The position numbers and the translations under genes are program-made. A DNA stretch of 64,000 bases from Candidatus Anammoxibacter sp. (GTDB lineage: Bacteria; Planctomycetota; Brocadiia; Brocadiales; Anammoxibacteraceae): assembly GCA_021777055.1 (NCBI GenBank), contig JAIQZO010000004.1, positions 55,594-119,593 of the forward strand, in the 5' to 3' direction. Position 1 is the stretch's first letter. Each line of letters starts with the position of its first letter. Of the stretch, positions 8,734 through 41,656 are shown piece after piece. The notes under the pieces were generated by a model that was not told the DNA's origin, made no database searches, and was given only the letters and a program-made list of their open reading frames with translations.

Positions 8734-9654
8734 TCAACGTCTTATTACACTGGAGTATATATCTCGCACCTTATATTCTAATCTTTTCCACCGTGATTGT
8801 TGAAAAAGTACTATTTCAAGTTTTGGGATAGAAAGATGTCGACGTCTATGACATTCTATAGAATAGTTAATTAATCTATAAACATCACTAAAAGTTGCAT
8901 CCCCTAAATTGATAATCCATCCAGGTGTTTTTTCTGAAAACATAGCGTTACCTATTCGATGACCAATAATTTCAGGTAACGGCTTAAATTTCTGCTTAAA
9001 AATAGTTCCAGCGTTGGGATATCCAAGATCTTGCGTTTTTCTTACTAGCTCTATTCTTTCTTTAATCTTTTGCCTGCTTATTTCTTTATCTTGATAATGC
9101 AGTTGTAAAACTGCAGACAATATAATCCATTCTCTCTTCTTATGAAATATGGAGGATCTATAATCGAAACAACAGTCCTTGTTATTAATTATTCTTATTT
9201 CTTTTCCATCAAATATCTCGACAGAAACAACATGATCAGATATGGAGAGTTTATGAGCGCGTCCTCTACCCGCATTCATCCATATCGCACCTCCAACATT
9301 ACCAGGAACAGAATGAAGATATTCTATTCCCGATAGATTATTTTCAATACCAAAAGCTATCAATTTCTGTAATTCTATACTAGATCCTACTTTTACAAGA
9401 TAATTATCATCAACGCTAATCGTTCTACAAGCCTCAGTATTCTTAATGACAATTCCTTTTAATCCTTCATCGCAGATAAGAAGATTGGATCCTCTTCCAA
9501 TAACGTAATATGGTATCTTCTTTTTCTTACAAAACATTACCTTCTCTATCAATTCATCCTTACTGGAAGGAATACATAAACACTCTGCTATCCCGCCAAT
9601 TTTAAAAGTAGTATGTCTCGAAAGAGGTTCATTATAATATTCAGATCTATTCAT
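8734..9654 (-). CDS. MurB-like UDP-N-acetylenolpyruvoylglucosamine reductase paralog (FAD-binding)
   Basis: LSRHTTFKIGGIAE, IGRGSNLLI, SVPGNVGGAIWMNAG and YPNAGTIFK follow the order of type II MurB motifs. The usual GSxFKNP is GTIFKQ here. The start overlaps the upstream ORF by 8 nt. Confidence 0.7.
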   Translation of the reverse strand: MNRSEYYNEPLSRHTTFKIGGIAECLCIPSSKDELIEKVMFCKKKKIPYYVIGRGSNLLICDEGLKGIVIKNTEACRTISVDDNYLVKVGSSIELQKLIAFGIENNLSGIEYLHSVPGNVGGAIWMNAGRGRAHKLSISDHVVSVEIFDGKEIRIINNKDCCFDYRSSIFHKKREWIILSAVLQLHYQDKEISRQKIKERIELVRKTQDLGYPNAGTIFKQKFKPLPEIIGHRIGNAMFSEKTPGWIINLGDATFSDVYRLINYSIECHRRRHLSIPKLEIVLFQQSRWKRLEYKVRDIYSSVIRR

Positions 9655-10837
9655 TTGCCGAAATTATCAGTTTAATCTTATTAACAAATTCATTTGATTG
9701 GTTAGTAAAAATCTTTCTTTTTTCCTTAATGTAACTATATGGCCATTCTTTCAAAATGTTATCTTTAAAAATTTGATCGATTTTTTTTAGAAAAGCAGCT
9801 TGAGTTGTGTAATAAAATTCCAATAAATCAAAGGATCGCATCAAATCTTTCATTTTACTTTCTCCATCACTACTAGAATTACGGAGATCGATCCCAAAAA
9901 ATGGAGTCCCATTCGCAATACACGCTATACTTGGATGCATCAAGATAGAAACACAAATATCAAAGAAACCAAAGATAGAGAACCATTCTAAAGGATTAAA
10001 ATCCTCTTTTGAAAGATCGACATCTATAGCATCATTTGAGAAAGAAACCCCTACCGTTTGATATTCTCTTTGTTTAAAATATTTTATTAATTCATTTGTC
10101 TCTGAATTATTATAAGCAACAATACCCACTCTTGGTTTTGAGAAGTCTACCCCTAACTCTTCTAGTTTACATTTAATCTGGTTTTTATCAACAAGGCCTA
10201 AAACATCAATAGAGAATGCCGGATCGGGCACCAACTCTGCTTTTTGGGCAAGATCTTTATCCAACCATTCAAGAAAAGAAATTGTTCTTTGATCTCTTAC
10301 CCCTAACAAACTAAAATCTAAGAGATTTCTTGTCATCATTTTTTTATGCTTTTTAGGAATCAGAGTCCAATCAGTTTGCCCTACGCATGCAGCATATGCA
10401 ATCTTTGGCATTTTTATGCTCCTATCAGGCCAATATGCATTCGGAAAAGCTGGTGACCAAGGATATTTCTGATTATAAACAGGCCAAAACCATTTTTTAG
10501 AATGTGTATATTTAACCCGCCAAACTTCATCACTTCCAACAATAACGGCATTGTAATTATTTTTAATAATATACTTAAACGCCTTAACATGTGTATCTTC
10601 TATGAATCTCTGCGGACTTAAAGGTAAGGAATTATTAATGAAGTTGTCTAAAACTTTTTCTCTTTTATTTTTAGGCTCTCCATAAACTTTTATTTTAGAG
10701 ATATAATTATGGTCCACTATATCCACATCGCAGTTTGAGAGTTGTTCCGCTAAAAGCTTAGTAAGGCAAAAAGCTTGCAAAATTGCACCTTCATTAAATC
10801 CTGAATGAAGTGTTAAAACTCCAACCTTTTTCTTCAC
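9647..10837 (-). CDS. polysaccharide pyruvyl transferase family protein
   Basis: KVGVLTLHSGFNEGAILQAFCL, VVGSDEVWRV and GVRDQRTISFL resemble the CsaB/WcaK-type pyruvyl transferase family. Confidence 0.55.
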   Translation of the reverse strand: MKKKVGVLTLHSGFNEGAILQAFCLTKLLAEQLSNCDVDIVDHNYISKIKVYGEPKNKREKVLDNFINNSLPLSPQRFIEDTHVKAFKYIIKNNYNAVIVGSDEVWRVKYTHSKKWFWPVYNQKYPWSPAFPNAYWPDRSIKMPKIAYAACVGQTDWTLIPKKHKKMMTRNLLDFSLLGVRDQRTISFLEWLDKDLAQKAELVPDPAFSIDVLGLVDKNQIKCKLEELGVDFSKPRVGIVAYNNSETNELIKYFKQREYQTVGVSFSNDAIDVDLSKEDFNPLEWFSIFGFFDICVSILMHPSIACIANGTPFFGIDLRNSSSDGESKMKDLMRSFDLLEFYYTTQAAFLKKIDQIFKDNILKEWPYSYIKEKRKIFTNQSNEFVNKIKLIISANE

Positions 10838-14789: not shown

Positions 14790-15650
14790 TTACTCGTTAG
14801 TGTAAAGATCTATACCAAACGAAGAAACAATATCAGAAATAGTGCGGACCTCATCTTTATTAAGCTCAGACTTCCAGCCTTGTAAGTTTCTCCCCTCAAT
14901 CAAATAATTTCTATCTTTATTTGTAGAAACGTCTGTTGGCTTAGAGATTTTATCGCTTATTCCACAAGGCATCTTTAGGCCGAGTAATGTAAATACTCTT
15001 TCTAATTCTTCTCTCTTTGTGACTAAATTTTCGTATTTACAAAATATAGCTTCCTCATTTTCTAGCTGTTTAAGCGGAATCATGTTTTCAATACTCCACA
15101 TAATTGCATGCTTTTCGATATCTTTCTTGCAACCTCTTATTAAACCTTCAAAAGGATAAAGATAATCTTCCATTAACTCTTGCTGGTCCAAAAACGTATC
15201 AAGATGCGTTTCCCATTTCTTTTTCATCCTAGATAAGACAACAGCACAAGGATGGCGAGTAGTAAAGATTATAGGGTTTTTAAATCTCTTCTTAAGATAC
15301 CCTAAAAATAGATTTGCCCGAATTTCCTTTACAATAATTCTCCATGTAACATTTCTTCTATTTTCCGATAATATCCATTTGTTTCTGATTTTTCCTAGTA
15401 AAACATCTTCGATTGTTTTATCTAGACGATGTTCCTTACTATCTGGTCTAATATAAGGCCGCAAAGACGATGTATTTATTTGTGGAACATATTTGTAATT
15501 AAACGGCTCAAAAAGTGATAAAAAACCAGAACAACTTCCAATGATATTCCCTAACCAGGTAGTGCCGCTCCGACCAGACCCGGTAACTAATATAGTATCA
15601 CTAGGTTTATAAAATGGATTAAAAAAAACTGGTTGCATTATTTGATTCAC
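14790..15650 (-). CDS. PAPS-dependent sulfotransferase
   Basis: 5'-phosphosulfate-binding loop LVTGSGRSGTTWLGN and 3'-phosphate motif IIFTTRHPCAVVLS. Confidence 0.75.
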   Translation of the reverse strand: MNQIMQPVFFNPFYKPSDTILVTGSGRSGTTWLGNIIGSCSGFLSLFEPFNYKYVPQINTSSLRPYIRPDSKEHRLDKTIEDVLLGKIRNKWILSENRRNVTWRIIVKEIRANLFLGYLKKRFKNPIIFTTRHPCAVVLSRMKKKWETHLDTFLDQQELMEDYLYPFEGLIRGCKKDIEKHAIMWSIENMIPLKQLENEEAIFCKYENLVTKREELERVFTLLGLKMPCGISDKISKPTDVSTNKDRNYLIEGRNLQGWKSELNKDEVRTISDIVSSFGIDLYTNE

Positions 15651-23050: not shown

Positions 23051-24118
23051 CTAATAACTTTCATATATTTTAATTTGAGATTCTGTGAACTGACGAATAT
23101 TTTTATTTTGTCGATATGCTTGATACCATTCAACGATCCACTCTAAGGTTGTAGCAAGAGTTAACTTTGGCGTCCACTTTAACAAACTTTTTGCCTTTGA
23201 ACAATCTAGTTTTAAAAGATTATCTTCATGCGGATGCACGACTGAATCAATCTCAAAACAAGCTCCATCTCCCCAAAGATTCGACATATACTCTACAATC
23301 CATGAAACAGGTTTTACGTCATCATCATTAGGCCCAAAATTCCAACTCTCGGCAAATCCAGGCCCTCTACTCCATAACTGTTCAGCAAGAATTAAATAAC
23401 CACTCAACGGTGTCATAACAAACTGCCAAGGACGAGTACTACTTGGGTTGCGAATTATAACTGGTTGGTCTTTCATAAATGCATTCAGAATATCAGGGAC
23501 AAGCCTATCTTTAGACCAATCTCCACCACCAATTACATTTCCAGCCCTAGCACTACCAACTGCAATTCCATGCTGAGCATATTTTTCTATAGAAAAATAA
23601 GACGTACGGTAAGCAGAAACAACAAGTTCTGCACATCCTTTACTGCTAGAGTAAGGATCATGCCCTCCCATCCTTTCATTCTCCCTATACCCCCATAACC
23701 ATTCTTTATTTTCATAACACTTATCACTTGTGATAGAAACAACAACGCGTACGCTATTTGAGTGCCTGACGGCTTCTAATATATTTACAGTACCCATAAT
23801 ATTCGTAGAGTACGTTTCAACTGGATCAAGATAAGAACTATGAACTAGCGCTTGCGCTGCCATATGTATGACGATTTCAGGCTGATACTTTTCCATAACA
23901 GACTTGATGTGCTCTAAATCACGAACGTCACCAGGAATATATACCATGCCATTTTCTACATTCGCTAATTCAAACAAGCTAGGTTCTGTATGTGGCAACA
24001 AAGAATATCCAACAACATGTGATTCCAAAGATTGCAACCACAGAGACAACCAACTACCCTTAAAGCCCGTACAACCAGTAACAAGTACCTTTTTGCCTTT
24101 CCAAAACAGTCTATTCAT
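23051..24118 (-). CDS. rfbG: CDP-glucose 4,6-dehydratase
   Basis: FWKGKKVLVTGCTGFKGSWLSLWL and YSSSKGCAE (YxxxK). The likely ATG at 24118 forms an ATGA overlap with the rfbF stop; the track start at 24133 is further upstream. Confidence 0.85.
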   Translation of the reverse strand: MNRLFWKGKKVLVTGCTGFKGSWLSLWLQSLESHVVGYSLLPHTEPSLFELANVENGMVYIPGDVRDLEHIKSVMEKYQPEIVIHMAAQALVHSSYLDPVETYSTNIMGTVNILEAVRHSNSVRVVVSITSDKCYENKEWLWGYRENERMGGHDPYSSSKGCAELVVSAYRTSYFSIEKYAQHGIAVGSARAGNVIGGGDWSKDRLVPDILNAFMKDQPVIIRNPSSTRPWQFVMTPLSGYLILAEQLWSRGPGFAESWNFGPNDDDVKPVSWIVEYMSNLWGDGACFEIDSVVHPHEDNLLKLDCSKAKSLLKWTPKLTLATTLEWIVEWYQAYRQNKNIRQFTESQIKIYESY

Positions 24119-24888
24119 GTCCAAACCTTCCAAGGAGGATTACCGGAATTCCATAATTCATCTAAATACATTTTATTACGTAATGTATCCATTGGTTGCC
24201 AAAAATCTTTATGCAAGAATGCAGAAATCTTCCCATCTTGCACTAAACGCTTCATTGGTGCATGTTCCCACATGGTCTCATCTCCGTCAATATAATCAAG
24301 AACCTGAGGTGACAAAACAAAAAAACCTCCATTAATCCACCCACTATCTCCTTCTGGCTTCTCTTCAAAGCCAAGAACACGATGCTGGGCATCAAACGTT
24401 AAAACACCATATCTCGTTGGAGGCAAAATAGCAGTAACTGTAGCCAAAGTATTTTGTTCTTTGTGATATGCAATTAGCTTCTTTATGTCTACATTACAGA
24501 CACCATCTCCATATGTAAAGCAAAAATCATCATCACCAATATGCTCTTTTACGCGTTTCAACCGTCCTCCGGTAGCAGTTCTCTCTCCAGTGTCAACTAA
24601 TGTAACTTTCCATGTTTCCGCATTGTTTTGCAAGATATCCATGCTATTATTTTTTATATCAAATATCACATCAGACATATGAAGAAGATAATTTGCAAAA
24701 TATTCTTTAATCACATATCCTTTGTACCCACAGCAGATAACAAATTCATTTATCCCATACGCCGAGTATATTTTCATGATATGCCAAAGAATTGGTTTAC
24801 CTCCAATTTCAACCATTGGCTTAGGACGTACACTTGTCTCCTCAGAAATACGAGTACCGAAACCTCCCGCTAAAATCACTGCTTTCAT
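24115..24888 (-). CDS. rfbF: glucose-1-phosphate cytidylyltransferase
   Basis: MKAVILAGGFGTRISEETSVRPKPMVEIGGKPILWHIMKIYSAYGINEFVICCGYKG is near-canonical RfbF/DdhA. Confidence 0.9.
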   Translation of the reverse strand: MKAVILAGGFGTRISEETSVRPKPMVEIGGKPILWHIMKIYSAYGINEFVICCGYKGYVIKEYFANYLLHMSDVIFDIKNNSMDILQNNAETWKVTLVDTGERTATGGRLKRVKEHIGDDDFCFTYGDGVCNVDIKKLIAYHKEQNTLATVTAILPPTRYGVLTFDAQHRVLGFEEKPEGDSGWINGGFFVLSPQVLDYIDGDETMWEHAPMKRLVQDGKISAFLHKDFWQPMDTLRNKMYLDELWNSGNPPWKVWT

Positions 24889-25346: not shown

Positions 25347-27539
25347 TCAACTATTAACGTTTGTTGCAACTCTTTTGTGTTCACGATGTCTCCCTAGCCC
25401 AACAACCTTAACATTATTTTCTGAACTGCCAGAAAATTTATTAAGTATATGATTTTCACCTTTTAAACTATCAATTATTTTCCGTACTTCATCCACGACA
25501 TCTTCATCAGAATTGTTTTTGATAAGGCTCCCCAATTTAGCAATATGCCCATCGAGAACTTTAGTTGACGGAACAACCGGAATTATGGTTCTAATCTTCT
25601 TATGAAATGTTGGCATCACCTTTTCAGATTTATCAAAAAGCTCTTCATACAATTTCTCTCCTGGCCTTAAACCAGTAAACTCAATTTTTACTTCCTTATG
25701 TGGAATAAAACCTGACAACCTTATTATGTTTTCTGCCAGGTCCATTATTTTTATCTGCTCCCCCATATCAAGAACAAATATCTCGCCGTTAGAGCCTGAC
25801 GAGGCAGCTATAAGGACAAGGTTGACAGCTTCTGGTATAAGCATAAAGTACCTCTTTATATCTGGATGGGTTACTTTTAATGGTCCTCCGTTTTTCAACA
25901 TATCTTTGAACACAGGCACAACACTCCCATTGCTGCCTAACACATTTCCAAACCTCACTGTTGTAAATTGTGTTCGCGAGACTGAATTCATATTTATTGC
26001 CAGAAACTCTGCTATTCGTTTTGTTGCCCCCATTACACTCGTCGGGTTTACCGCCTTATCAGTTGATATCATCACAAAGTTATCTACATTGCACATAGTT
26101 GAAACATCTATTAGGTTTTTTGTCCCAAAAATATTGTTTTTTACTGCTTCCAGTGGATTCGCTTCCATAAGAGGAACATGTTTGTGCGCTGCGGCGTGGA
26201 ATACTATTTGTGGCCCATGGAGCAGAAATGATCTTTCCAAGGATACTTTCTCCGCAATATCCCCTATTACCAATACCACCTTAGTCCCACTATCATCGCT
26301 ATCTAATAAAGGCTTTAATTCCAACCCTATCTTATATAAGCCGTTTTCATACCTATCCAAAAGTATTAATTTAGATGGATTATATTTAATTATTTGTCGA
26401 CAAAGTTCAGAACCTATTGACCCTCCGGCTCCTGTTACCAATACCGATTTGCCTTTTATAAAATCGCATACTGATTTTATGCCTGTCTTGACTGGCTCTC
26501 GTTGAAGCAAGTCTTCCAGAGATATATTCTTCAAACCTGATATCCCATTATCGTTTACTAGAAACGAAACAAGATCCTTCTCTGCAATATAGCCAAGCTT
26601 TATTAGCCTTACACCAAGCTTATCATCATCACGCAACGATAACGCTTCCTGTATCTGTTCCTTTGTAACCAAATTAGCAGATACAAGACGTTCCCCTATC
26701 CTTCTTAATGTTGAGACATCTCCATCTAAAACCTCCTGCAAACCAGGTAGTTTCTTTATCGGTATGTTGGATGATTTACTAAGTTCAAAGATATCACGAA
26801 TCTCCTTATTATCTGAAGATTTTACAGACATTAAGATCTCATCCGGCTTATATTTTTCTATAATTCTTGGAATTATTCTGCTTGTACCAAATATTCTAAC
26901 TCCGTGCACAGAGCGTCCCTTTTTACCAAGATCCTCATCTATAATCCCGATAGGGATATATCCATATTTAGGATTATCCATCAAATTTTTTATAATTACT
27001 TCTAATATTACACTATCACCAATGAGCAACGCTCTCTTCCCCACAGGTTTTGATCGCAGATGTTCTCTATAGGCGATCCTCACGCTTAGCCTAGTACCAC
27101 AAGAAAGAAGTACTAGCAACAACCAGTCAAGTACATATATTGAAATTGGATAACCAATGTCACCATACACAAACCTTACTACTATAAAAAACAGGGCACT
27201 TCCCATAAGCGTGCATTTTATGATCCTACTCATATCACTAATGCTTGAATAACGCCAGAAGTCTTTATTTAATCCTGCCTGAAAGTAAAAAGCTGTTCGT
27301 ATTAACAAAAGCACGGGCAGATAACCTAACATTAATCTTAAATTATCTGCAGGAGGGAAAAACGATTCAGACCTAATAGCAAATGCTAAATAACCTGCAA
27401 ATGTAGATTGAATAATATGTACAAGAACTACAAATACAGTCCTATTAATTACAGCCGTGGGCCTAAAACGGAGAATAGCAGCTTTCAATACCTTGTAAAA
27501 GACGGTATCAATATGGAAGTTTGACATAATGTGATCCAA
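25347..27539 (-). CDS. membrane-anchored WbpM/CapD/PglF-type UDP-sugar 4,6-dehydratase with an inserted MshEN-like segment
   Basis: N-terminal TM helices, a central Rossmann-like domain (KRALLIGDSVI..), an SDR domain VLVTGAGGSIGSEL and MGATKRIAE. The first codon at 27539 is TTG; an ATG lies at 27527. Confidence 0.85.
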   Translation of the reverse strand: MDHIMSNFHIDTVFYKVLKAAILRFRPTAVINRTVFVVLVHIIQSTFAGYLAFAIRSESFFPPADNLRLMLGYLPVLLLIRTAFYFQAGLNKDFWRYSSISDMSRIIKCTLMGSALFFIVVRFVYGDIGYPISIYVLDWLLLVLLSCGTRLSVRIAYREHLRSKPVGKRALLIGDSVILEVIIKNLMDNPKYGYIPIGIIDEDLGKKGRSVHGVRIFGTSRIIPRIIEKYKPDEILMSVKSSDNKEIRDIFELSKSSNIPIKKLPGLQEVLDGDVSTLRRIGERLVSANLVTKEQIQEALSLRDDDKLGVRLIKLGYIAEKDLVSFLVNDNGISGLKNISLEDLLQREPVKTGIKSVCDFIKGKSVLVTGAGGSIGSELCRQIIKYNPSKLILLDRYENGLYKIGLELKPLLDSDDSGTKVVLVIGDIAEKVSLERSFLLHGPQIVFHAAAHKHVPLMEANPLEAVKNNIFGTKNLIDVSTMCNVDNFVMISTDKAVNPTSVMGATKRIAEFLAINMNSVSRTQFTTVRFGNVLGSNGSVVPVFKDMLKNGGPLKVTHPDIKRYFMLIPEAVNLVLIAASSGSNGEIFVLDMGEQIKIMDLAENIIRLSGFIPHKEVKIEFTGLRPGEKLYEELFDKSEKVMPTFHKKIRTIIPVVPSTKVLDGHIAKLGSLIKNNSDEDVVDEVRKIIDSLKGENHILNKFSGSSENNVKVVGLGRHREHKRVATNVNS
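26550..26702 (-). other. MshEN/GSPII_E-N-like tandem motif inserted in the WbpM-like protein
   Basis: RIGERLVSANLVTKEQIQEALSLR-DDD-KLGVRLIKLGYIAEKDLVSFLVND lies between the KKLPGLQEVLDG segment and the conserved LEDLLQREPV linker. Confidence 0.55.
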
Positions 27540-28558
27540 AACTAATTTTAGGTTTAATAATATTTTAATTGCAAATTAATTGTGAATTTAGAATTTTTAA
27601 ACAATTACTTGAATAAAAGAAACTAATCTATTAAGCAGACAGCTATGCCAATCCAGTGGTTTACATCTAAACAATTCTTCTTTTACAATTAAAATCAATA
27701 CCTTTTACATGAGAAATAACCAGAAGAAAAATTGAGTCTCAGTTGAAAAAACGAAATAATAAAATGGCTGGAAATGCAAATAAACATGCATTAATTGGCA
27801 TCTCATCTATAAAAAACCAGACAAACTATTCTAAACAAAAGAGCTACCAAAACCAACAGCAAATAGAGAGCCAAATAATATTTATATTATAAGCAAACTA
27901 AATACAATATTTTGGACTCAACTCCGCTGACCTCCAAGCAGATAACCAACCTACAAGTTTATTTACATGAATATTTTTAAAATCTAGCCTGCAAAAAATT
28001 TGCGCATTGAGCACAAAATTGTGCAGCAAGCAGAGTTGCATATATCAAAGTAAACTTATACCCTTTAAGAAACAACCTTACAGCTTGTTGTCTTTTTCTC
28101 AATTTAATATCAAAATTTACACCATGGCAAGTTAAATAAAAATCCATATCTGTAACTAACAGCACAGGACACCTTCAAAAAGCAAGGCAAGTTTTCATGT
28201 TTTTCCTAGGATCCTACCTTCCGGCTCTTTATTTAGGCAAAAAAAAAACAATCAAAAGTTTCCTTTGTTATTATTAACCAATTAACTACACACTGCAGAT
28301 AAAAGCACAAGGTCTTATGTTTAGGCCAGATAAGCAACTAACATCTTAATTATTTAATTGCCAGATCAACATAGCCTTACAGTACAAAAGCTTAATTTTT
28401 AAAGATTTTGTAGTTTTCACGAAATACTGAATCCGTAAGCCAAGCCAACATAAAACTGAAGATGAAAAACACATACTATATTACGATTAACAACAGGAAG
28501 AAATAACTACAAATCTATGCCTTATTCTATATTCCAACCTGGTAGAAGCTTCACCGCA

Positions 28559-31189
28559 TTATGCATAACATGCATAACTATTATCATGTACCTTCCCCGC
28601 CTTTACCTGATTCAGTATAGTTCCCACAACATTAGCGTTCGCCTTTTTTAAATGATCTCCAGCTTCCTCAATTTGTTTGACAGAGACATGCCCTGATTTA
28701 GCAACAAATATAACACCATCAACAATAGAAAACAATGGGCTTGCGCTGCACATTGTTTCCAGAATCGGGGCGGCATCCACAAGCACCACATCGTAATTAT
28801 TACGGAGAATATTTAAACATTTTTCCATTATCGACAGAAAATAGACTGAACTCACCGGCCTTACATTTAGTATTCCTGCTGGCAATAACGACAAATTTGG
28901 CCCATTTACATTCTGAATATAAGAAAATATATCCCTTTCAAGCAAGCGGGTTTCAGATATTCTACTTAACCGATTAATAATAGGCTTATAATCCTCCTGA
29001 AAATAAATCCTTTTATCTTCGTAAGTTTCAATACTACCATGTTCAAAAGAAAATGTCCCATGTTTCCAGCTAAACAGCTTCTGCAAATGTTCCTCCATCT
29101 GTAGTTTCAAAGGGCCCTGCAGTTGATCTTGATTTATATACCCAGCATTAATAAGAATGTACCCCAAAGGTTGCCCGGTCCGTTGATTTCTTTCAAGCGC
29201 ATCTTTTAATTGACTTTCATCAATAAAACCTCCACGCAACAACATAGTACCCAGACGATTAGCAAAAGGAACATCTTGGCTCTGCAAATTAAATAAACGA
29301 CCTTTCTCGAAGAAAGCAGTCATCGCCTGGTTATCGCTCCTAACTACAAGTTGACCACTATGCCTCTTTAAACCAATCAAAAAAAAGATGTCATCAACAC
29401 TGCATTTATCTAATGCCCCTTGCCTTAATTCATGCAACATAATATCCTCCATAACATTAGATAACCCTTTCTCGCCCTTATTTTCCAGAGCAAAGAGACG
29501 GTGCAAGGATGGTCGCAGAAAATCAGCATCAACCATAAGCACGCGAGCCCCTCCTACAGCAAGGCTTATAGCAGATTTTGCAATGACAGAGGTCTTACCT
29601 TCACCCGCAGTTGCACTCTGTACGACAAAAACCTGCCCAAGTGCTTTTGATTGTATTGAAGACAAACAAGTAGAAAGATTTCCAGAAATATCATAACGAC
29701 CATAACCATAACCTTTCCTTTCTTTTCCATTGGCACTCTCCAACCGCAAAACAGGTTTACTTCTTTTTATCGCCCTGTCATATGGCAAGAGACCAAGCAC
29801 AGGAGTTCCCAAAAACTGCCTAACATCATTAGGGGTCTTAATCGTATTGTCCATATATTCAAAGAAAAAGGCCAAGCCAACACCAAACGCCAGCCCCACA
29901 ACCACCGACATCATAAAGTTCACAAATACATTCGGTTCTGACGGACGATTTGGAACCTCAGCCTTATCCACAACACGAATATTATTTGTTTCCATGCTAC
30001 CAGTAAGGTTTAGTTCCTTTGCTTGTTTAAGCAAAATATCATGGATCGCTCTTTCGCTTTCTACATCTAATTTTAACATTTCATAATTAAGTTCATCAGA
30101 AGTAATAACTTCTCCGCCCTTTTGTACGAGATTACTAGCAACTTGGCTAGATTTGTTTTCATCACTGGCTAAAGCACGATCCATCTTTGTTTTTATTGTC
30201 ATCCGCGCCAGCCTTATTTCGTTCTTAATCTCTTGTTTTATCTGCTCAAGACTTGAATCTATTTCAATTATTTTTGGGTACCTTTGACCGTATTTGGCCG
30301 AAAGCTCTGCCCTGTCAATTGAAAGTTTTGTTAATTTGTTCCGCAGCTCAGCAATAACACGATTATCCTCAATCAAGGGTGACGAAAAGGCACTTTCAGC
30401 TTCAATAAAAGACGGATCAAGTTTTTCATACTTAAATTTATTTAACATTTGCAATGATGACTCAACTTTAACCTTTTGATCTCTAATTTGCTCTTTGATC
30501 CAATCAAGCGCTTGCTGAGATGCTAGACGCTGAGAATCAATATCGTTTTTAATAAATTCAAGCGCATGTGCGTTAGCAATACGTGCTGCCATTTTAGGAG
30601 ATAAATCCGAAAAAGTAATATCCACCAAACTAGTATCGCGAACAGGAGAAACATCTAATTTAGACAAATAATAATCCACAAAAACATCCTTTTTATACAG
30701 ACCCTCCTCTTTACCACTCAATGGTAAGGCCCCTTGACCTTTCGCAACTTTATATTTTGGTTTAGGCAAGAAACCTTTAAAAAACTTTGAAACTTTTTTC
30801 TGTACAAAAGTTAAATAATCCGGCTTTTCTCTCATAATAGATTTAAAGTAACCCCTTAATTCCAGATCATCAATCACTTTTTTTGCAAGGCCCCGACTCT
30901 TCAATAGTTTATATTGCGTATCATTATACATCTTCGGATTTGGCCCCATATCAACTTTCGCCAACCTTCCTATAAAGGAAGAATCCTTTTGAAGAAAAAA
31001 ACGAGTACTGGATTTAAATACAGGCTTAGTATTTATTGTTTTAACGGACACAAGGCAAACTATAGATAAAAAGAAAACGATAACCACCCATTTACGCCGC
31101 CAAACAATATTAAGGTAATCACTTAAATGGACTTGATCTGAACGTGAAACTTCTCCATCTGGAAAATTCGAAATCAGGTTTTTATTCAT
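28559..31189 (-). CDS. Wzc-like polysaccharide co-polymerase / BY-type tyrosine kinase with a large insertion in the kinase domain
   Basis: TM1 VVIVFFLSIVCLVSV, a long coiled-coil periplasmic region, and TM2 FMMSVVVGLAFGVGLAFFF. Walker A SATAGEGKTS, A' VLMVDADFLRP, NLSLLPAG, Walker B VVLVDAAP. ATG at 31189; an alternative TTG is at 31204. Confidence 0.8.
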   Translation of the reverse strand: MNKNLISNFPDGEVSRSDQVHLSDYLNIVWRRKWVVIVFFLSIVCLVSVKTINTKPVFKSSTRFFLQKDSSFIGRLAKVDMGPNPKMYNDTQYKLLKSRGLAKKVIDDLELRGYFKSIMREKPDYLTFVQKKVSKFFKGFLPKPKYKVAKGQGALPLSGKEEGLYKKDVFVDYYLSKLDVSPVRDTSLVDITFSDLSPKMAARIANAHALEFIKNDIDSQRLASQQALDWIKEQIRDQKVKVESSLQMLNKFKYEKLDPSFIEAESAFSSPLIEDNRVIAELRNKLTKLSIDRAELSAKYGQRYPKIIEIDSSLEQIKQEIKNEIRLARMTIKTKMDRALASDENKSSQVASNLVQKGGEVITSDELNYEMLKLDVESERAIHDILLKQAKELNLTGSMETNNIRVVDKAEVPNRPSEPNVFVNFMMSVVVGLAFGVGLAFFFEYMDNTIKTPNDVRQFLGTPVLGLLPYDRAIKRSKPVLRLESANGKERKGYGYGRYDISGNLSTCLSSIQSKALGQVFVVQSATAGEGKTSVIAKSAISLAVGGARVLMVDADFLRPSLHRLFALENKGEKGLSNVMEDIMLHELRQGALDKCSVDDIFFLIGLKRHSGQLVVRSDNQAMTAFFEKGRLFNLQSQDVPFANRLGTMLLRGGFIDESQLKDALERNQRTGQPLGYILINAGYINQDQLQGPLKLQMEEHLQKLFSWKHGTFSFEHGSIETYEDKRIYFQEDYKPIINRLSRISETRLLERDIFSYIQNVNGPNLSLLPAGILNVRPVSSVYFLSIMEKCLNILRNNYDVVLVDAAPILETMCSASPLFSIVDGVIFVAKSGHVSVKQIEEAGDHLKKANANVVGTILNQVKAGKVHDNSYACYA
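28905..29469 (-). other. approx 185-aa DUF4388-like plus MshEN-like insertion within the BY-kinase domain
   Basis: SVDDIFFLIGLKRHSGQLVVRSDNQAMTAFFEKGRLFNLQS is followed by RLGTMLLRGGFIDESQLKDALERN-QRTGQ-PLGYILINAGYINQDQLQGPLKLQ (nt 29099-29257) and then FSWKHGTFSFE. Confidence 0.6.
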
Positions 31190-31318
31190 AAATATCTTTA
31201 GCAAAAACTATTAACAAAAGTTATTATTTATTATATAAAAATAGCATAACTAACATAACACCTAACAAACAAAAGCGGCTAATCCTAAATTCATTTATCT
31301 GCCATTTAATTAATAAAA

Positions 31319-37859: not shown

Positions 37860-39626
37860 TTACTCTATTACAGTTTCATCTAAAACTTGTTCTAATGTAG
37901 TAATGCCATCATATGCAACACGAAGCCCACCTTCCCTTAGTGTTCTCATGCCGTTTTTCCTTGCCGCAGATCTTATCTCTGAAACAGAAGCGTTTTTCGT
38001 TACCAGGTAAGAGATCTCGTCGTTCATCTCCATTATTTCATATATAGCAATTCTGCCTTTATAACCGGTCTTTCTACATTCATCACATCCTACGCCATGA
38101 TAGAACTTTTTGCCAGTAATGTCACTGGGCATCAGTTTAAGGTTCTTTAACACCATCTCGCCTGGAACATATTCCTCTTTGCAAGCAAGACATACCCTCC
38201 TTATTAACCTCTGACTTATTACTGCCTGCAGTGTTGCTGATATCAAAAAAGGCTGTACACCCATATCAACTAACCTGGAAATTGTAGAAGGGGAGTCGTT
38301 TGTGTGAAGTGTACTAAACACCAAATGCCCTGTCATCGCAGCCTGTACAGCTATCTGTGCGGTTTCTTCGTCCCTTATCTCACCAACTAGGATTATGTCC
38401 GGGTCTTGCCTTAATACAGCACGTAAACTTGACGCAAATGTAGTACCCACATTCGGATTAATCGGAATCTGCATTATTCCTTCTATTTCGTTCTCCACGG
38501 GGTCCTCAGTTGTAATAATTTTTACATCGATAGTATTTTTTTGGTGCAGGATTGCATATAAAGTGGAGGTTTTTCCCGAACCGGTAGGGCCGGTAACAAG
38601 AATAATACCATTGGGCATCCTTAATAAATTCATAACCTGATTTAACTCTTTTCCTTCCAGTCCCAGGTTTTTAAAATCCATAGACGCAATGCCTTTATCA
38701 AATATTCGTAGTACAACACTTTCACCGAATTTAGTTGGCAGGCATGACACCCGAAACTCTATGGGGCTACCCATAATACGAAGTTTTATCCTTCCGTCCT
38801 GAGGCAGTCTTTTTTCGGATATATTCAAGTTGGACATAACTTTAATCCTGGTTATAATTCCCATCCCAAAATTATTCGGAGGAGATGCCTTTTGATACAA
38901 AGTGTTATCAATCCGATACCTAACTACAAATTCGTCATCAAACGGTTCAAAATGAATATCACTAGCCCCTTCTTTTACCGCATGCAATAAAACTGTATTT
39001 ACAAAACTTTTCACAGGGGCAATATCTGCCATGATTTTAAGCTCTTCAATATCTAAATCTATGACATTATGATCACCACTCTGTAATCCAGACGGTTTGC
39101 CATATTCAACATCACCCAGCAGTTTCGCCAAAGAATCACACTTGCTTCCCATTGGGTAGTACTTTTCTATTGCTTTGCTGACATCATCGTAAGGGCAAAC
39201 AACCCCCTTAACCCTATATCCAAAAAAGAGCGTAATATCTCGCAGCTGGTCTAATTTTAAGGCATTTTCCTGTGCAACTTCCAGAATTCCATCTTCATAA
39301 GATATGGGTACAATACGGTAGATTTGTGCAATTGACTGTGGGATTTTTTCGATGGCCTCTTCAGGGAGCTCCAAGCGAGAGATATCAACTTGGCGCATCC
39401 CCAGGAATTTACTAATGGCGTCCTGTATCTGTTCGGAAGTGATATATTTAAGACGAACCAATATATCTCCAAGCATACCTTTACGGTTTTTCTGTATTTT
39501 AAGCGCCTCCTGCATCTGCTCGTCAGTGATAAGGTTCATCTCCATAAGGATCTGGCCGAACAACTTGCGCCTGGCAATAAGCTCTGGTTCAGACTTGCCA
39601 CGATACTGTTTATTTTTTAGTTTCAT
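37860..39626 (-). CDS. PilB/GspE/MshE-family assembly ATPase, paralog 1
   Basis: N-terminal tandem motif LFGQILMEMNLITDEQMQEALKIQ-KNRKG-MLGDILVRLKYITSEQIQDAISKF (nt 39405-39563). Walker A GPTGSGKTST, ILVGEIRD, STLHTND and a tetracysteine CLACK..CDECRKTGYKGR. Confidence 0.9.
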   Translation of the reverse strand: MKLKNKQYRGKSEPELIARRKLFGQILMEMNLITDEQMQEALKIQKNRKGMLGDILVRLKYITSEQIQDAISKFLGMRQVDISRLELPEEAIEKIPQSIAQIYRIVPISYEDGILEVAQENALKLDQLRDITLFFGYRVKGVVCPYDDVSKAIEKYYPMGSKCDSLAKLLGDVEYGKPSGLQSGDHNVIDLDIEELKIMADIAPVKSFVNTVLLHAVKEGASDIHFEPFDDEFVVRYRIDNTLYQKASPPNNFGMGIITRIKVMSNLNISEKRLPQDGRIKLRIMGSPIEFRVSCLPTKFGESVVLRIFDKGIASMDFKNLGLEGKELNQVMNLLRMPNGIILVTGPTGSGKTSTLYAILHQKNTIDVKIITTEDPVENEIEGIMQIPINPNVGTTFASSLRAVLRQDPDIILVGEIRDEETAQIAVQAAMTGHLVFSTLHTNDSPSTISRLVDMGVQPFLISATLQAVISQRLIRRVCLACKEEYVPGEMVLKNLKLMPSDITGKKFYHGVGCDECRKTGYKGRIAIYEIMEMNDEISYLVTKNASVSEIRSAARKNGMRTLREGGLRVAYDGITTLEQVLDETVIE

Positions 39627-39946: not shown

Positions 39947-41656
39947 TTACCCTGTAACCCTAATAATCTCTTCAATAGTTGTGTTTCCTTTAAAGACCTT
40001 ACACAATCCGTCTTCACGCAGTGTTTTCATACCACAGCCCACAATCGCCGCATTTTTTATCTTCTCTTTTGTTTCGCCATTATATATCATATCTTTAATC
40101 TCATTGTTTATTATCATAAGTTCATAGATACCAATTCTACCCTTATACCCGGTGCCTTTACAGTTGCTACAGCCTTTACCTTTAAAGAAAGTAACATCTT
40201 TTAACTCCCGCGGGTCAAGTCCTACCATCGCCAGCTTTTCTGTGGAGTATATAAACGGTTTCTTGCATTCCGGACAATTCTTCCTTACCAGCCTTTGAGC
40301 CATCACACCAAGAATTGATGTGGCAACAAGGTACGACTTTGCTCCCATATCTACTAACCGCGTAATTGCAGAAGGGGCATCATTCGTATGCAGTGTGCTC
40401 AGTATCAAATGTCCTGTTAGCGCTGCGGCAATAGCGATTTCTGCAGTTTCAATATCCCTTATCTCTCCAACTACAACTATGTTGGGGTCCTGCCGCAAGA
40501 TAGACCTCAGTATTACAGGAAATGTCAACCCCGCCACTTCATTAACCTCACATTGATTAACTCCCCTTAAATCATATTCTATTGGATTCTCCACTGTTAT
40601 CAGTTTTTTCTCAGGGGCGTTAATTTCATTTAACGCAGAGTATAATGTGGTAGTCTTACCACTTCCGGTAGGCCCTGTTATAAGTAATATTCCATTAGGT
40701 CGTCTTATGGCTTCCCTAAAAAGTCCCAAATCATCCAGTTCAAAACCCAGTTGATCAAGATTCACCATGATTGACTCTGATTCCAGCAACCTCATTACTA
40801 TACTTTCTCCATTTGTTACCGGAATTGTACTTACTCGTAAATCCAACGGGTGATCTTCTATCATCAACGAGATTCTTCCATCCTGCGGTTTCCTTTTCTC
40901 GGTAATATCAATATTGCTCATAATCTTAATTCGGGAGATAACTGCGTTTTGTATATTCCTTGGCAATACATTTGTCTGTTGGCAAACACCATCAATCCGA
41001 TAGCGGACGCGGAGACTATCTGACATCGGTTCTATGTGTATATCGCTTGCTTGGGCTTTAACCGCTTCGCTTATAATATGCAAAACTATCTTTATTACAG
41101 GGGCGTCGGTCTCTTTATCTTCTGCAGAATCAAACGTTTCATTTATAAGCTGAATAGATACACCATCCGCTTCTTCAGCGCCAGCATCCAAGATATTATC
41201 CACGGAAGGTAAGATTTCTGCCTCAGGTTTATCTCTCTGTTGATAAAGCTCTTGAATATTTTTAAAACTTTCTGGAGTAATCAGGACAAATTTTATATCA
41301 ACACCAAGAATAAACCGTAGATTATCTAAGGTAAGAAGGTCTAGCGGCGAACTAGAAGCTAGAATAAGGACATTGCCCTCTTTTTTTATAGGCACTACGA
41401 TATGTTTTGACGCCACATTTTCCGATATCAGACTAATGTCAATATCATTAATCACCGATTTATCAACATCCATAAATTCAACACCAAAATTACCGGCTAA
41501 ACACCTTGCAATATCTTCAGATGTAGCAAACCCCAACCCTTTTATCGCACCTTCGATGCTTACACCGGTTTCTTCACTCAGCTTTTCAGCATTTAACAAC
41601 TGGGATTCGGACAATATGCCATTTTCTAGAAGAATTTTTCCTGTAAGAATTTTCAT
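39947..41656 (-). CDS. PilB/GspE-family assembly ATPase, paralog 2
   Basis: GSPII_E-N-like N-terminus (LTGKILLENGILSESQLLNAEKL..), GPTGSGKTTT, VVVGEIRD, STLHTND and CPECK..CSNCKGTGYKGR. Confidence 0.9.
   Translation of the reverse strand: MKILTGKILLENGILSESQLLNAEKLSEETGVSIEGAIKGLGFATSEDIARCLAGNFGVEFMDVDKSVINDIDISLISENVASKHIVVPIKKEGNVLILASSSPLDLLTLDNLRFILGVDIKFVLITPESFKNIQELYQQRDKPEAEILPSVDNILDAGAEEADGVSIQLINETFDSAEDKETDAPVIKIVLHIISEAVKAQASDIHIEPMSDSLRVRYRIDGVCQQTNVLPRNIQNAVISRIKIMSNIDITEKRKPQDGRISLMIEDHPLDLRVSTIPVTNGESIVMRLLESESIMVNLDQLGFELDDLGLFREAIRRPNGILLITGPTGSGKTTTLYSALNEINAPEKKLITVENPIEYDLRGVNQCEVNEVAGLTFPVILRSILRQDPNIVVVGEIRDIETAEIAIAAALTGHLILSTLHTNDAPSAITRLVDMGAKSYLVATSILGVMAQRLVRKNCPECKKPFIYSTEKLAMVGLDPRELKDVTFFKGKGCSNCKGTGYKGRIGIYELMIINNEIKDMIYNGETKEKIKNAAIVGCGMKTLREDGLCKVFKGNTTIEEIIRVTG

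Follow-up and report, generated by a model that had tools for sequence, protein, structure and literature searches.

Within the 64,000-nucleotide stretch of Candidatus Anammoxibacter sp. contig JAIQZO010000004.1 that we call the window, a polysaccharide locus on the minus strand encodes a membrane-anchored UDP-N-acetylglucosamine (UDP-GlcNAc) 4,6-dehydratase of the WbpM/PglF/CapD type. The interdomain linker of this enzyme is interrupted by an insertion of 56 amino acids (aa). Sequence profiles and predicted structures identify the insertion as a genuine homologue of MshEN_N, the N-terminal subdomain of the GSPII domain and a compact bundle of four helices to which, in MshE, PilB/PilF, NfrB and EpsG-type proteins, a single cyclic di-GMP molecule binds. 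The genes are arranged in the order wza, wzc-like, a 1-kb gap, capD-MshEN (the dehydratase gene), rfbF, rfbG, an RmlC-like gene and a gene for a short-chain dehydrogenase/reductase (SDR); farther downstream lie genes for an ABC-2 transporter, glycosyltransferases, a sulfotransferase, a pyruvyl transferase and a deacetylase. The features discussed are collected in Table 1. Residues of the dehydratase are counted from the TTG codon throughout. The database copy is identical and begins at an ATG four codons past this TTG, giving a protein of 726 aa, and the ATG at 27527 is the likely start of the gene.

Table 1. Features of the dehydratase gene, of its insertion and of related or adjacent genes in the window (positions are those of the window)
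Feature	Residues	Position	Strand	Evidence or remark
Insert-bearing membrane-anchored WbpM/PglF/CapD-type UDP-GlcNAc 4,6-dehydratase gene (putative)		25347..27539	-	730 aa from TTG
N-terminal membrane region	~10-161	27057..27512	-	Hydropathy scan and AlphaFold2
Central Rossmann-like domain, CoA_binding_3 type	~166-266	26742..27044	-	PF13727, 29.8 bits (cutoff 25)
Insertion, predicted MshEN_N-type four-helix module	277-332	26544..26711	-	56 aa; alignment, AlphaFold2, Foldseek
Motif I, RIGERLVSANLVTKEQIQEALSLR	280-303	26631..26702	-	Translation; motif definition PMC5013675
Spacer DDD	304-306	26622..26630	-	3 residues versus 5
Motif II, KLGVRLIKLGYIAEKDLVSFLVND	307-330	26550..26621	-	Translation
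Conserved linker ISGLKNISLEDLLQREPV	333-350	26490..26543	-	Common to all insert-free homologues; PglF crystal construct starts there
SDR catalytic domain	~360-655	25575..26462	-	TGAGGSIGSE NAD(P) site and S492-T-D494-K495 catalytic motif
RfbF, glucose-1-phosphate cytidylyltransferase		24115..24888	-	Directly downstream of the dehydratase
MshEN_N motif in Wzc-like protein (28559..31204)		29108..29257	-	NF053729, 54.8 bits
MshEN_N motif of PilB-type ATPase 1 (37860..39626)		39408..39560	-	NF053729, 65.4 bits
Degenerate MshEN_N motif of PilB-type ATPase 2 (39947..41656)		41495..41641	-	NF053729, 24.6 bits, below cutoff

The dehydratase has the architecture of its better known relatives. WbpM of P. 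aeruginosa, PglF of C. jejuni (5BJU) and CapD of S. aureus share with it the membrane helices, the central Rossmann-like domain, the EDLLxRxP linker and an SDR domain with the GxGGxxG and S/T-D-K catalytic residues. The hydropathy scan shows four helices of strong hydrophobicity in the N-terminal region, preceded and followed by segments rich in K/R, and AlphaFold2 (AF2) places helices at residues 10-31, 33-57, 64-87, 100-124 and 132-161. Hydropathy and the positive-inside rule put the protein beyond residue ~161 in the predicted cytoplasm, the compartment of cyclic di-GMP (c-di-GMP). The Pfam span of CoA_binding_3 runs from aa 95 to 262, phmmer against the PDB aligned 3NKL, the central domain of a WbpM-like protein, to aa 183-277, and in the AF2 model strands and helices alternate in this domain with a predicted local distance difference test (pLDDT) score of ~80-95. 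Polysacc_synt_2 (PF02719) covers aa 366-652 at 384.9 bits, and the PglF catalytic construct 5BJU aligns from aa 337 onward (phmmer against the PDB, E 3e-82), with S492-T-D494-K495 paired with the STDK of PglF and 'MISTDKAV' kept. T369, G370, A371, G373, S374, I375 and G376 as well as S492, D494 and K495 are invariant. With its catalytic motifs intact the SDR domain is apparently active, and from homology we infer UDP-GlcNAc 4,6-dehydratase activity for the insert-bearing protein. The full-length AF2 model has a pLDDT of 83.4.

According to the original prediction, 51 residues carrying a tandem MshEN-type motif, with a spacer of three residues instead of five, are interposed in this protein between the central domain and the linker that leads into the catalytic domain. 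All of this is borne out. The translation of 26550-26702 on the minus strand reads exactly as it had been quoted, RIGERLVSANLVTKEQIQEALSLRDDDKLGVRLIKLGYIAEKDLVSFLVND, and corresponds to aa 280-330 of the 730-aa open reading frame (ORF); the tandem motif and its short spacer are recovered in the translation, with the NCBIfam model NF053729 and in the family alignment; and the segment lies between CoA_binding_3 and the ..EDLLqREPV.. linker that is followed by Polysacc_synt_2. Alignment with orthologues, which had been named as a check, identifies the segment as an insertion. As a control set we used 80 CapD/WbpM/PglF homologues of 35-49% identity from GTDB genomes (Firmicutes, Nitrospira, Chloroflexi, cyanobacteria and others; found by a single-protein genome scan, all insert-free), together with a paralogue from the same genome, and aligned them with MAFFT. 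In all 80 homologues and in the paralogue ..G-x-V-S is joined directly to [IV]-S-x-[IL]-[KR]-x-[IV]-x-[LI]-EDLL, and 56-58 extra residues, with the same boundaries in every case, are found only in the window protein and its close relatives. Thus the ordinary dehydratases sampled lack the insertion (0/80), and the reading of the segment as an insertion holds with one qualification: it is no isolated oddity, being shared by a family of at least 120 clusters. The insert-free WbpM/CapD paralogue lies elsewhere in the genome (contig C31:349517-351184), is 676 aa long and is 49% identical in the SDR domain, so that a putatively sensor-bearing and a plain version of the dehydratase coexist in this bacterium.

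What is the inserted module? NF053729 ('c-di-GMP_motif, MshE-related', 53 positions) matches aa 280-327; the score, 39.6 bits when the whole protein is searched and 44.8 bits for the fragment, exceeds the curated cutoff (38) by a small margin. PRK11234, the model for NfrB, can be aligned with the insert via its MshEN region (482-538), and the N-terminus of Geobacter PilB (5TSG residues 23-86) was aligned to aa 278-337 (E 5.5e-5) when the whole protein was compared with the PDB by phmmer. A family profile built from 38 family fragments found T. thermophilus PilF at 2e-19, Geobacter PilB at 2.3e-13 and V. cholerae MshE (5HTL, residues 7-64) at 1.1e-12 in the PDB. An AF2 model of aa 266-350, whose alignment was built only from the window and the fetched relative loci, contains four helices, predicted with moderate confidence (core pLDDT 72-83). 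Its best Foldseek match in the PDB is 5HTL_A, MshE with c-di-GMP (probability score 1.00, root-mean-square deviation 1.5 A over 50 columns, 34% identity), and the next match is XpsE-N. In the full-length model the four insert helices span residues 275-287, 293-301, 308-314 and 320-332 (pLDDT 70-88) and the N-side tether, residues 268-278, has a pLDDT below 50. As modelled, the module resembles a compact bead that hangs on a flexible tether.

Pfam is silent on this segment, as PF05157 (MshEN, T2SSE_N) has no match on the whole dehydratase or on fragments of it. We considered this silence as an argument against homology and rejected it, because PF05157 covers the region downstream of the motif: in the two PilB proteins of the window it matches only aa 75-159 and aa 57-143, the C-terminal subdomain that follows the 53-residue motif. 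The profile search that had been proposed as a test of the MshEN relationship therefore has a positive outcome with NF053729, and Pfam alone would have given a false negative. Pfam-based screens will miss modules that consist of MshEN_N only; even in both window PilBs the 53-residue motif is detected by NF053729 alone. The alpha-beta subdomain MshEN_C/T2SSE_N1 is absent from the dehydratase, as there is no PF05157 match and the insert has only 56 aa, and the insert consequently falls into the class that Wang 2016 (Supplementary Table 4) calls 'MshEN_N only'.

The tandem motif recurs across the 120 best matches in a collection of 5.8 billion proteins, at 53-77% identity, and the family comprises at least 120 clusters. 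Its named sources are Nitrospirota, Thermodesulfovibrionales, Planctomycetes, Ca. Scalindua and WS5, and the proteins bear generic database names such as 'polysaccharide biosynthesis protein'. The family consensus has the canonical form, with K/R-L-G-Q-R-L-I-x-A-N-L-V-T-E-x-Q-I-Q-E-A-L-x-L-Q for motif I, KKEGG for the spacer and R-L-G-S-K-L-V-K-L-G-Y-I-x-E-E-K-L-x-S-F-L-x-K-Q for motif II. The strict two-motif pattern is matched by 81 of the 120, G3 and L21 with a spacer of 3-5 residues are retained in all of them, and G3, L6 and L21 are invariant in both motifs. The canonical 24-5-24 form is found in 116/120, and the same number carry Q at position 24 of motif I.

How did the module arrive in the dehydratase? 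When the insert columns are taken out and a tree is computed from the central and SDR domains, all 127 insert-bearing sequences fall into one clade with a support of 0.83. This clade contains no nested insert-free sequence, and its sister is an insert-free Nitrospiraceae protein. The single insert-bearing clade points to one insertion event in evolution. The family is compact: in a search of a 50%-identity library with an 87-column family profile, we recognised only about five representatives of the CapD type among the top 150 matches. Proteins with multiple tandem MshEN_N repeats made up the bulk of these 150, which makes the search unsuitable for a family count. By its ClpX (79% identity) the window is closest to Ca. 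Anammoxibacter, followed by Jettenia, Kuenenia, Brocadia and Scalindua (64-67%), which places the organism in the Brocadiales of the Planctomycetota. The insert-bearing gene is present in 5 of the 91 other genomes of the order Brocadiales, all five from one family (5/28), and in none of 47 genomes of the order's largest family. It was found in none of 200 other genomes sampled from its own phylum, a sample that is uninformative on the distribution outside its own order. Additionally, the insert is present in 15 metagenome loci. The patchy distribution suggests lateral transfer.

The family also shows variation in copy number and in domain content. The genome of the nearest relative has three insert-bearing paralogues on one contig (P0003, P0004, P0007), and two genomes of the same order (G257, G258) have two insert-bearing copies each. 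Two proteins, P0074 (935 aa) and P0147 (897 aa), carry the insert at residues ~460-545 and are ~200 aa longer. The precomputed Pfam list of P0074 includes PF02397, the bacterial sugar transferase family, which suggests that an initiating phosphoglycosyl transferase may be fused to the sensor-bearing dehydratase.

The window copy departs from the canonical form in a distinctive way. Motif I keeps R1, G3, L6 and L21 (R280, G282, L285, L300) and has a conservative I for L2 and for L17, N for G10 and R for Q24. Motif II keeps positions 2, 3, 6, 10, 17 and 21 (L308, G309, L312, G316, L323, L327), with K307 for R1 and D330 for Q24. Gly3 and the hydrophobic positions 2, 6, 7, 11, 12, 17 and 21 are conserved in both motifs, as I2, G3, L6, V7, L11, V12, I17 and L21 in the first and L2, G3, L6, I7, Y11, I12, L17 and L21 in the second, and all six guanine-stacking hydrophobic positions are retained along with both Gly3. 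The three-residue DDD spacer is unique among the 120 homologues, three of which have a spacer of four residues. In this 24-3-24 form the window copy is the most derived, or most degenerate, family member seen. The insert is nevertheless 84% identical to that of the nearest homologue, versus 76% for the rest of the dehydratase, and across the family it is conserved to the same degree as the rest of the protein (52% versus 57%, with 48% for the central domain). Judged by these per-segment identities the insert is under purifying selection and not decaying; synonymous sites would be saturated against the 77%-identical relative.

Based on these observations, we propose that an MshEN_N module of the c-di-GMP type was inserted once into the linker of the dehydratase and that c-di-GMP tunes precursor supply through it, a reading towards which we incline with a confidence slightly better than even. 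A cytoplasmic bundle of the MshEN_N type is tethered between the membrane-proximal central domain and the SDR dehydratase domain. In this model binding of c-di-GMP would order the N-terminal turn of helix 1 together with the tether, and this ordering might shift the position of the catalytic domain relative to the central and membrane part, or else the oligomeric state. The flux from UDP-GlcNAc to the 4-keto-6-deoxy-N-acetylhexosamine (HexNAc) precursor would be either raised or lowered thereby. Production of the precursor would thus respond to the signal that the Wzc-like exporter next to it and the PilB ATPases apparently sense. Allosteric control of this kind is modelled by analogy on the glycosyltransferase NfrB, which c-di-GMP activates via its MshEN domain (PMC8669469). 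On present sequence evidence control of the dehydratase by c-di-GMP is likely for the family and stands at roughly even odds for the window copy. The same balance applies to binding itself, which is about evenly poised for the window copy and would be clearly more probable for the canonical relatives; the window copy is expected to bind more weakly than they do and may have lost binding. A bolder form of the model, which we advance only tentatively, has c-di-GMP gating the first committed nucleotide-sugar step together with Wzc-type export and chain-length control and the pilus ATPases, all within 16 kb, and regards the Gln-less 24-3-24 variant as a retuned receptor with lower affinity or with a pH dependence conferred by D330.

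Several observations weigh against the proposed c-di-GMP control. The Foldseek E-value of 0.05 to 5HTL_A is weak, a consequence of the small size of the domain (~55 residues). Both of the Gln24 residues that contact ribose and phosphate are replaced (R303, D330), the former by a residue within the relaxed motif pattern of Wang et al. and the latter by one outside it. With DDD in place of a five-residue spacer the tandem motif has 51 residues in total versus 53, even if spacer length is not strictly fixed in MshEN homologues, Geobacter PilB aligning with seven. Position 10 of motif I is N289 and falls outside even the relaxed pattern, which needs G, A or S; N is the family norm at this position (74/120, with G in 17/120), motif II has G316, and AF2 still predicts the turn at 288-292 despite N289. 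On NF053729 the window copy scores lowest of ten family members, at the end of a stepwise drop from 63-67 bits in canonical members through 57 (P0009 and P0010), 52 (P0005) and 49 (P0003) to 44.8 bits. In PilF, the GSPII-B domain binds c-di-GMP with a dissociation constant of ~6 nM, single Q-to-E mutants with 450-800 nM, a ~100-fold loss, and the double Q-to-E mutant does not bind at pH 7.5 (PMC12207366). GSPII-A of the same protein is a natural non-binder with H and R at the Gln positions, and restoring the consensus did not restore binding, as the site is obstructed by helix 1, which is extended and N-capped (PMC12002112). These mutants imply that the motif is necessary and not sufficient for binding. 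Among the residues that precede R280 in the window copy (V-S-T-L-R-R), read by eye, the N3 position is neither acidic nor an amide. In the AF2 model helix 1 reaches back to residue 275 with a pLDDT below 50, which is undiagnostic since the binder GSPII-B does likewise in its apo state. Hence the original prediction is upheld as to the type of module, and the c-di-GMP binding that it implied is less certain here than in the relatives, given the changes at Gln24 and the spacer and the lowest NF053729 score.

The same features are what a second explanation would draw upon, namely that the insert descends from MshEN_N, no longer binds c-di-GMP and persists as a spacer in the structure or as a surface for docking, for example in dimerisation or with Wzc-like and other MshEN partners. 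This is a possibility to be taken seriously, although we are inclined to doubt it. Loss of both Gln24, the spacer of three, K for R1 in motif II and the lowest NF053729 score of the family are in its favour, as are the natural MshEN-like non-binders XpsE and PilF GSPII-A, which have similar Q-to-R/H changes (PMC5013675, PMC12002112), and the failure of the doubly mutated GSPII-B to bind. The conservation of the insert in the close clade (68-84% identity) implies that some function is retained. The residues that matter most for affinity speak against a loss of binding, however. In MshE, Gly3 and the hydrophobic positions dominate affinity, with mutants losing more than tenfold and no binding by G11L and G40I, while changes at the charged or polar R9, D12 and Q32 cost less than fivefold (PMC5013675). 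The non-binder XpsE has G11V, I19R, L29R, R38G, G40L, L54H, L58C and Q61V, and no change of the XpsE type occurs at the Gly and hydrophobic positions of the window copy (PMC5013675). R303 could still donate a hydrogen bond to the phosphate, and a protonated acidic side chain, such as D330 might offer, can substitute for Gln as hydrogen-bond donor (PMC12207366). Moreover, an isolated MshEN_N subdomain suffices for c-di-GMP binding (PMC5013675, PMC12207366).

A change of ligand, to 3'3'-cGAMP (cyclic GMP-AMP) or another dinucleotide, with specificity retuned by the altered Gln positions and the shorter spacer, is improbable. VcMshEN does bind cGAMP weakly (PMC5013675), and the changed positions are exactly the polar contacts to the ribose-phosphate ring; yet both halves keep the elements that recognise guanine, namely the Gly3 backbone amides and the hydrophobic triads, unaltered, and close relatives grade smoothly into the canonical form. 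Chance similarity, or an assembly or frameshift artefact, is refuted for practical purposes in spite of the missing Pfam match, which the coverage of PF05157 explains, and of the shortness and leucine-richness of the domain, since NF053729 scores above cutoff, the family profile has PDB matches from 1e-12 to 2e-19, the best structural match is MshE, the frame is continuous, the insertion boundaries are exact and conservation of the segment extends over at least 120 independent clusters and 15 metagenome loci.

Proposed control of the dehydratase by c-di-GMP can be set beside what is established for other systems. Known c-di-GMP control of exopolysaccharides acts on synthases and co-polymerases (BcsA, Alg44, PelD, PgaCD, NfrB) or on transcription. 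If the model is correct, a receptor within a UDP-GlcNAc 4,6-dehydratase would bring the c-di-GMP signal to the step of precursor supply, and in the bolder form of the model a single second messenger would act post-translationally on precursor synthesis, on export and chain length and on pilus ATPases in an anammox-related bacterium. The MshEN_N domain of MshE (5HTL, PMC5013675) and the GSPII-B and GSPII-C domains of PilF (8PDK, PMC11731258) consist of the same two 24-residue motifs of the RLGxxLVxxGhhxxxxLxxxLxxQ type in a four-helix bundle, and Gly3 and the L2/L17/L21 triads are conserved in these and in the insert, in line with the profile match of 1e-12 to 5HTL. Unlike them, the insert is internal to a sugar dehydratase instead of forming the N-terminus of a T2SSE ATPase, it lacks MshEN_C/T2SSE_N1, and in the window copy the spacer is shorter and the two Gln24 have become R and D. 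E. coli NfrB (PMC8669469, PMC8669472) is likewise a polysaccharide-pathway enzyme fused to MshEN, a glycosyltransferase of family GT2 activated by c-di-GMP; it has a full C-terminal MshEN on a polymerising glycosyltransferase, whereas here an internal MshEN_N only is found on a nucleotide-sugar dehydratase that supplies precursor. The bacterial tyrosine kinases (BY-kinases) of the EpsG type from Methylobacillus (MshEN_N-AAA_31, Wang 2016 Supplementary Table 4; TIGR03029) also combine MshEN_N only with an exopolysaccharide-pathway protein, and canonical members of our family give weak matches to the N-terminal part of TIGR03029; in EpsG the host is a kinase or co-polymerase and the module N-terminal, and in the present case the host is a dehydratase and the module lies within the linker. 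For CapD of S. aureus, a regulated checkpoint, the sole small-molecule control reported is inhibition by cell-wall precursors, which involves no dedicated sensor domain (PMC6441080).

The MshEN partners compiled by Wang et al. 2016 are T2SSE ATPases, GT2 (NfrB), REC, HD-GYP, CheA/CheX, cyclases and kinases, and further AAA_31 (EpsG), peptidase M23 and TrxB (PMC5013675); a combination of MshEN with Polysacc_synt_2/CapD is not among these architectures. A full-text literature search for MshEN with CapD, WbpM, PglF, Polysacc_synt_2, nucleotide sugar, anammox or Nitrospira yielded no relevant paper. The present analysis contributes a derived 24-3-24 variant, a tree that supports a single origin, and data on distribution. 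The hosts, Nitrospirota and some anammox Planctomycetota, are organisms whose aggregation and biofilm formation matter for wastewater treatment and whose genetics is difficult. In addition, the window copy could serve as a natural experiment to learn whether spacer length and Gln24 are among the motif features needed for binding, an active question for the GSPII domains of PilF.

What surrounds the dehydratase? In 12 of 17 insert-bearing loci (the 15 metagenome loci, L176 and L177) rfbF follows the dehydratase gene, so that a UDP-HexNAc enzyme and a CDP-hexose pathway form a conserved pair. Among these 17, only two have Wza and Wzc upstream. In the nearest relative (77% identity) the genes likewise run wza, wzc, capD, rfbF, and the Scalindua insert-bearing copy stands alone. 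It had also been proposed that the first committed enzyme of the locus shares its module with the Wzc-like protein and the PilB ATPases, and NF053729 indeed detects this type of module in the adjacent Wzc-like protein as well as in both PilB-type ATPases encoded in the window, the second PilB below cutoff. The genome has ten NF053729 matches in all, four of them in the window (dehydratase, Wzc-like protein, PilB1 and the below-cutoff PilB2). Among the others, C96:29162-29494 comprises two tandem modules in one frame of 743 aa, and C112:24884-25024 and C64:14791-14937 lie one in a 913-aa and one in a 105-aa frame.

An Rfam scan of the whole 64-kb window gave no family at threshold, and hence no c-di-GMP riboswitch upstream of the gene. 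The gap of 1.0 kb between the wzc-like and dehydratase genes (27540-28558) has neither an Rfam match nor an ORF above 62 aa. With 8 GGDEF, 1 EAL and 12 PilZ domains the genome has a working c-di-GMP machinery. Elsewhere in the polysaccharide locus, at 8734-10837 and 14790-15650 of the minus strand, lie genes for a MurB-like FAD enzyme, a polysaccharide pyruvyl transferase and a sulfotransferase, which suggest that the glycan produced is heavily decorated and anionic.

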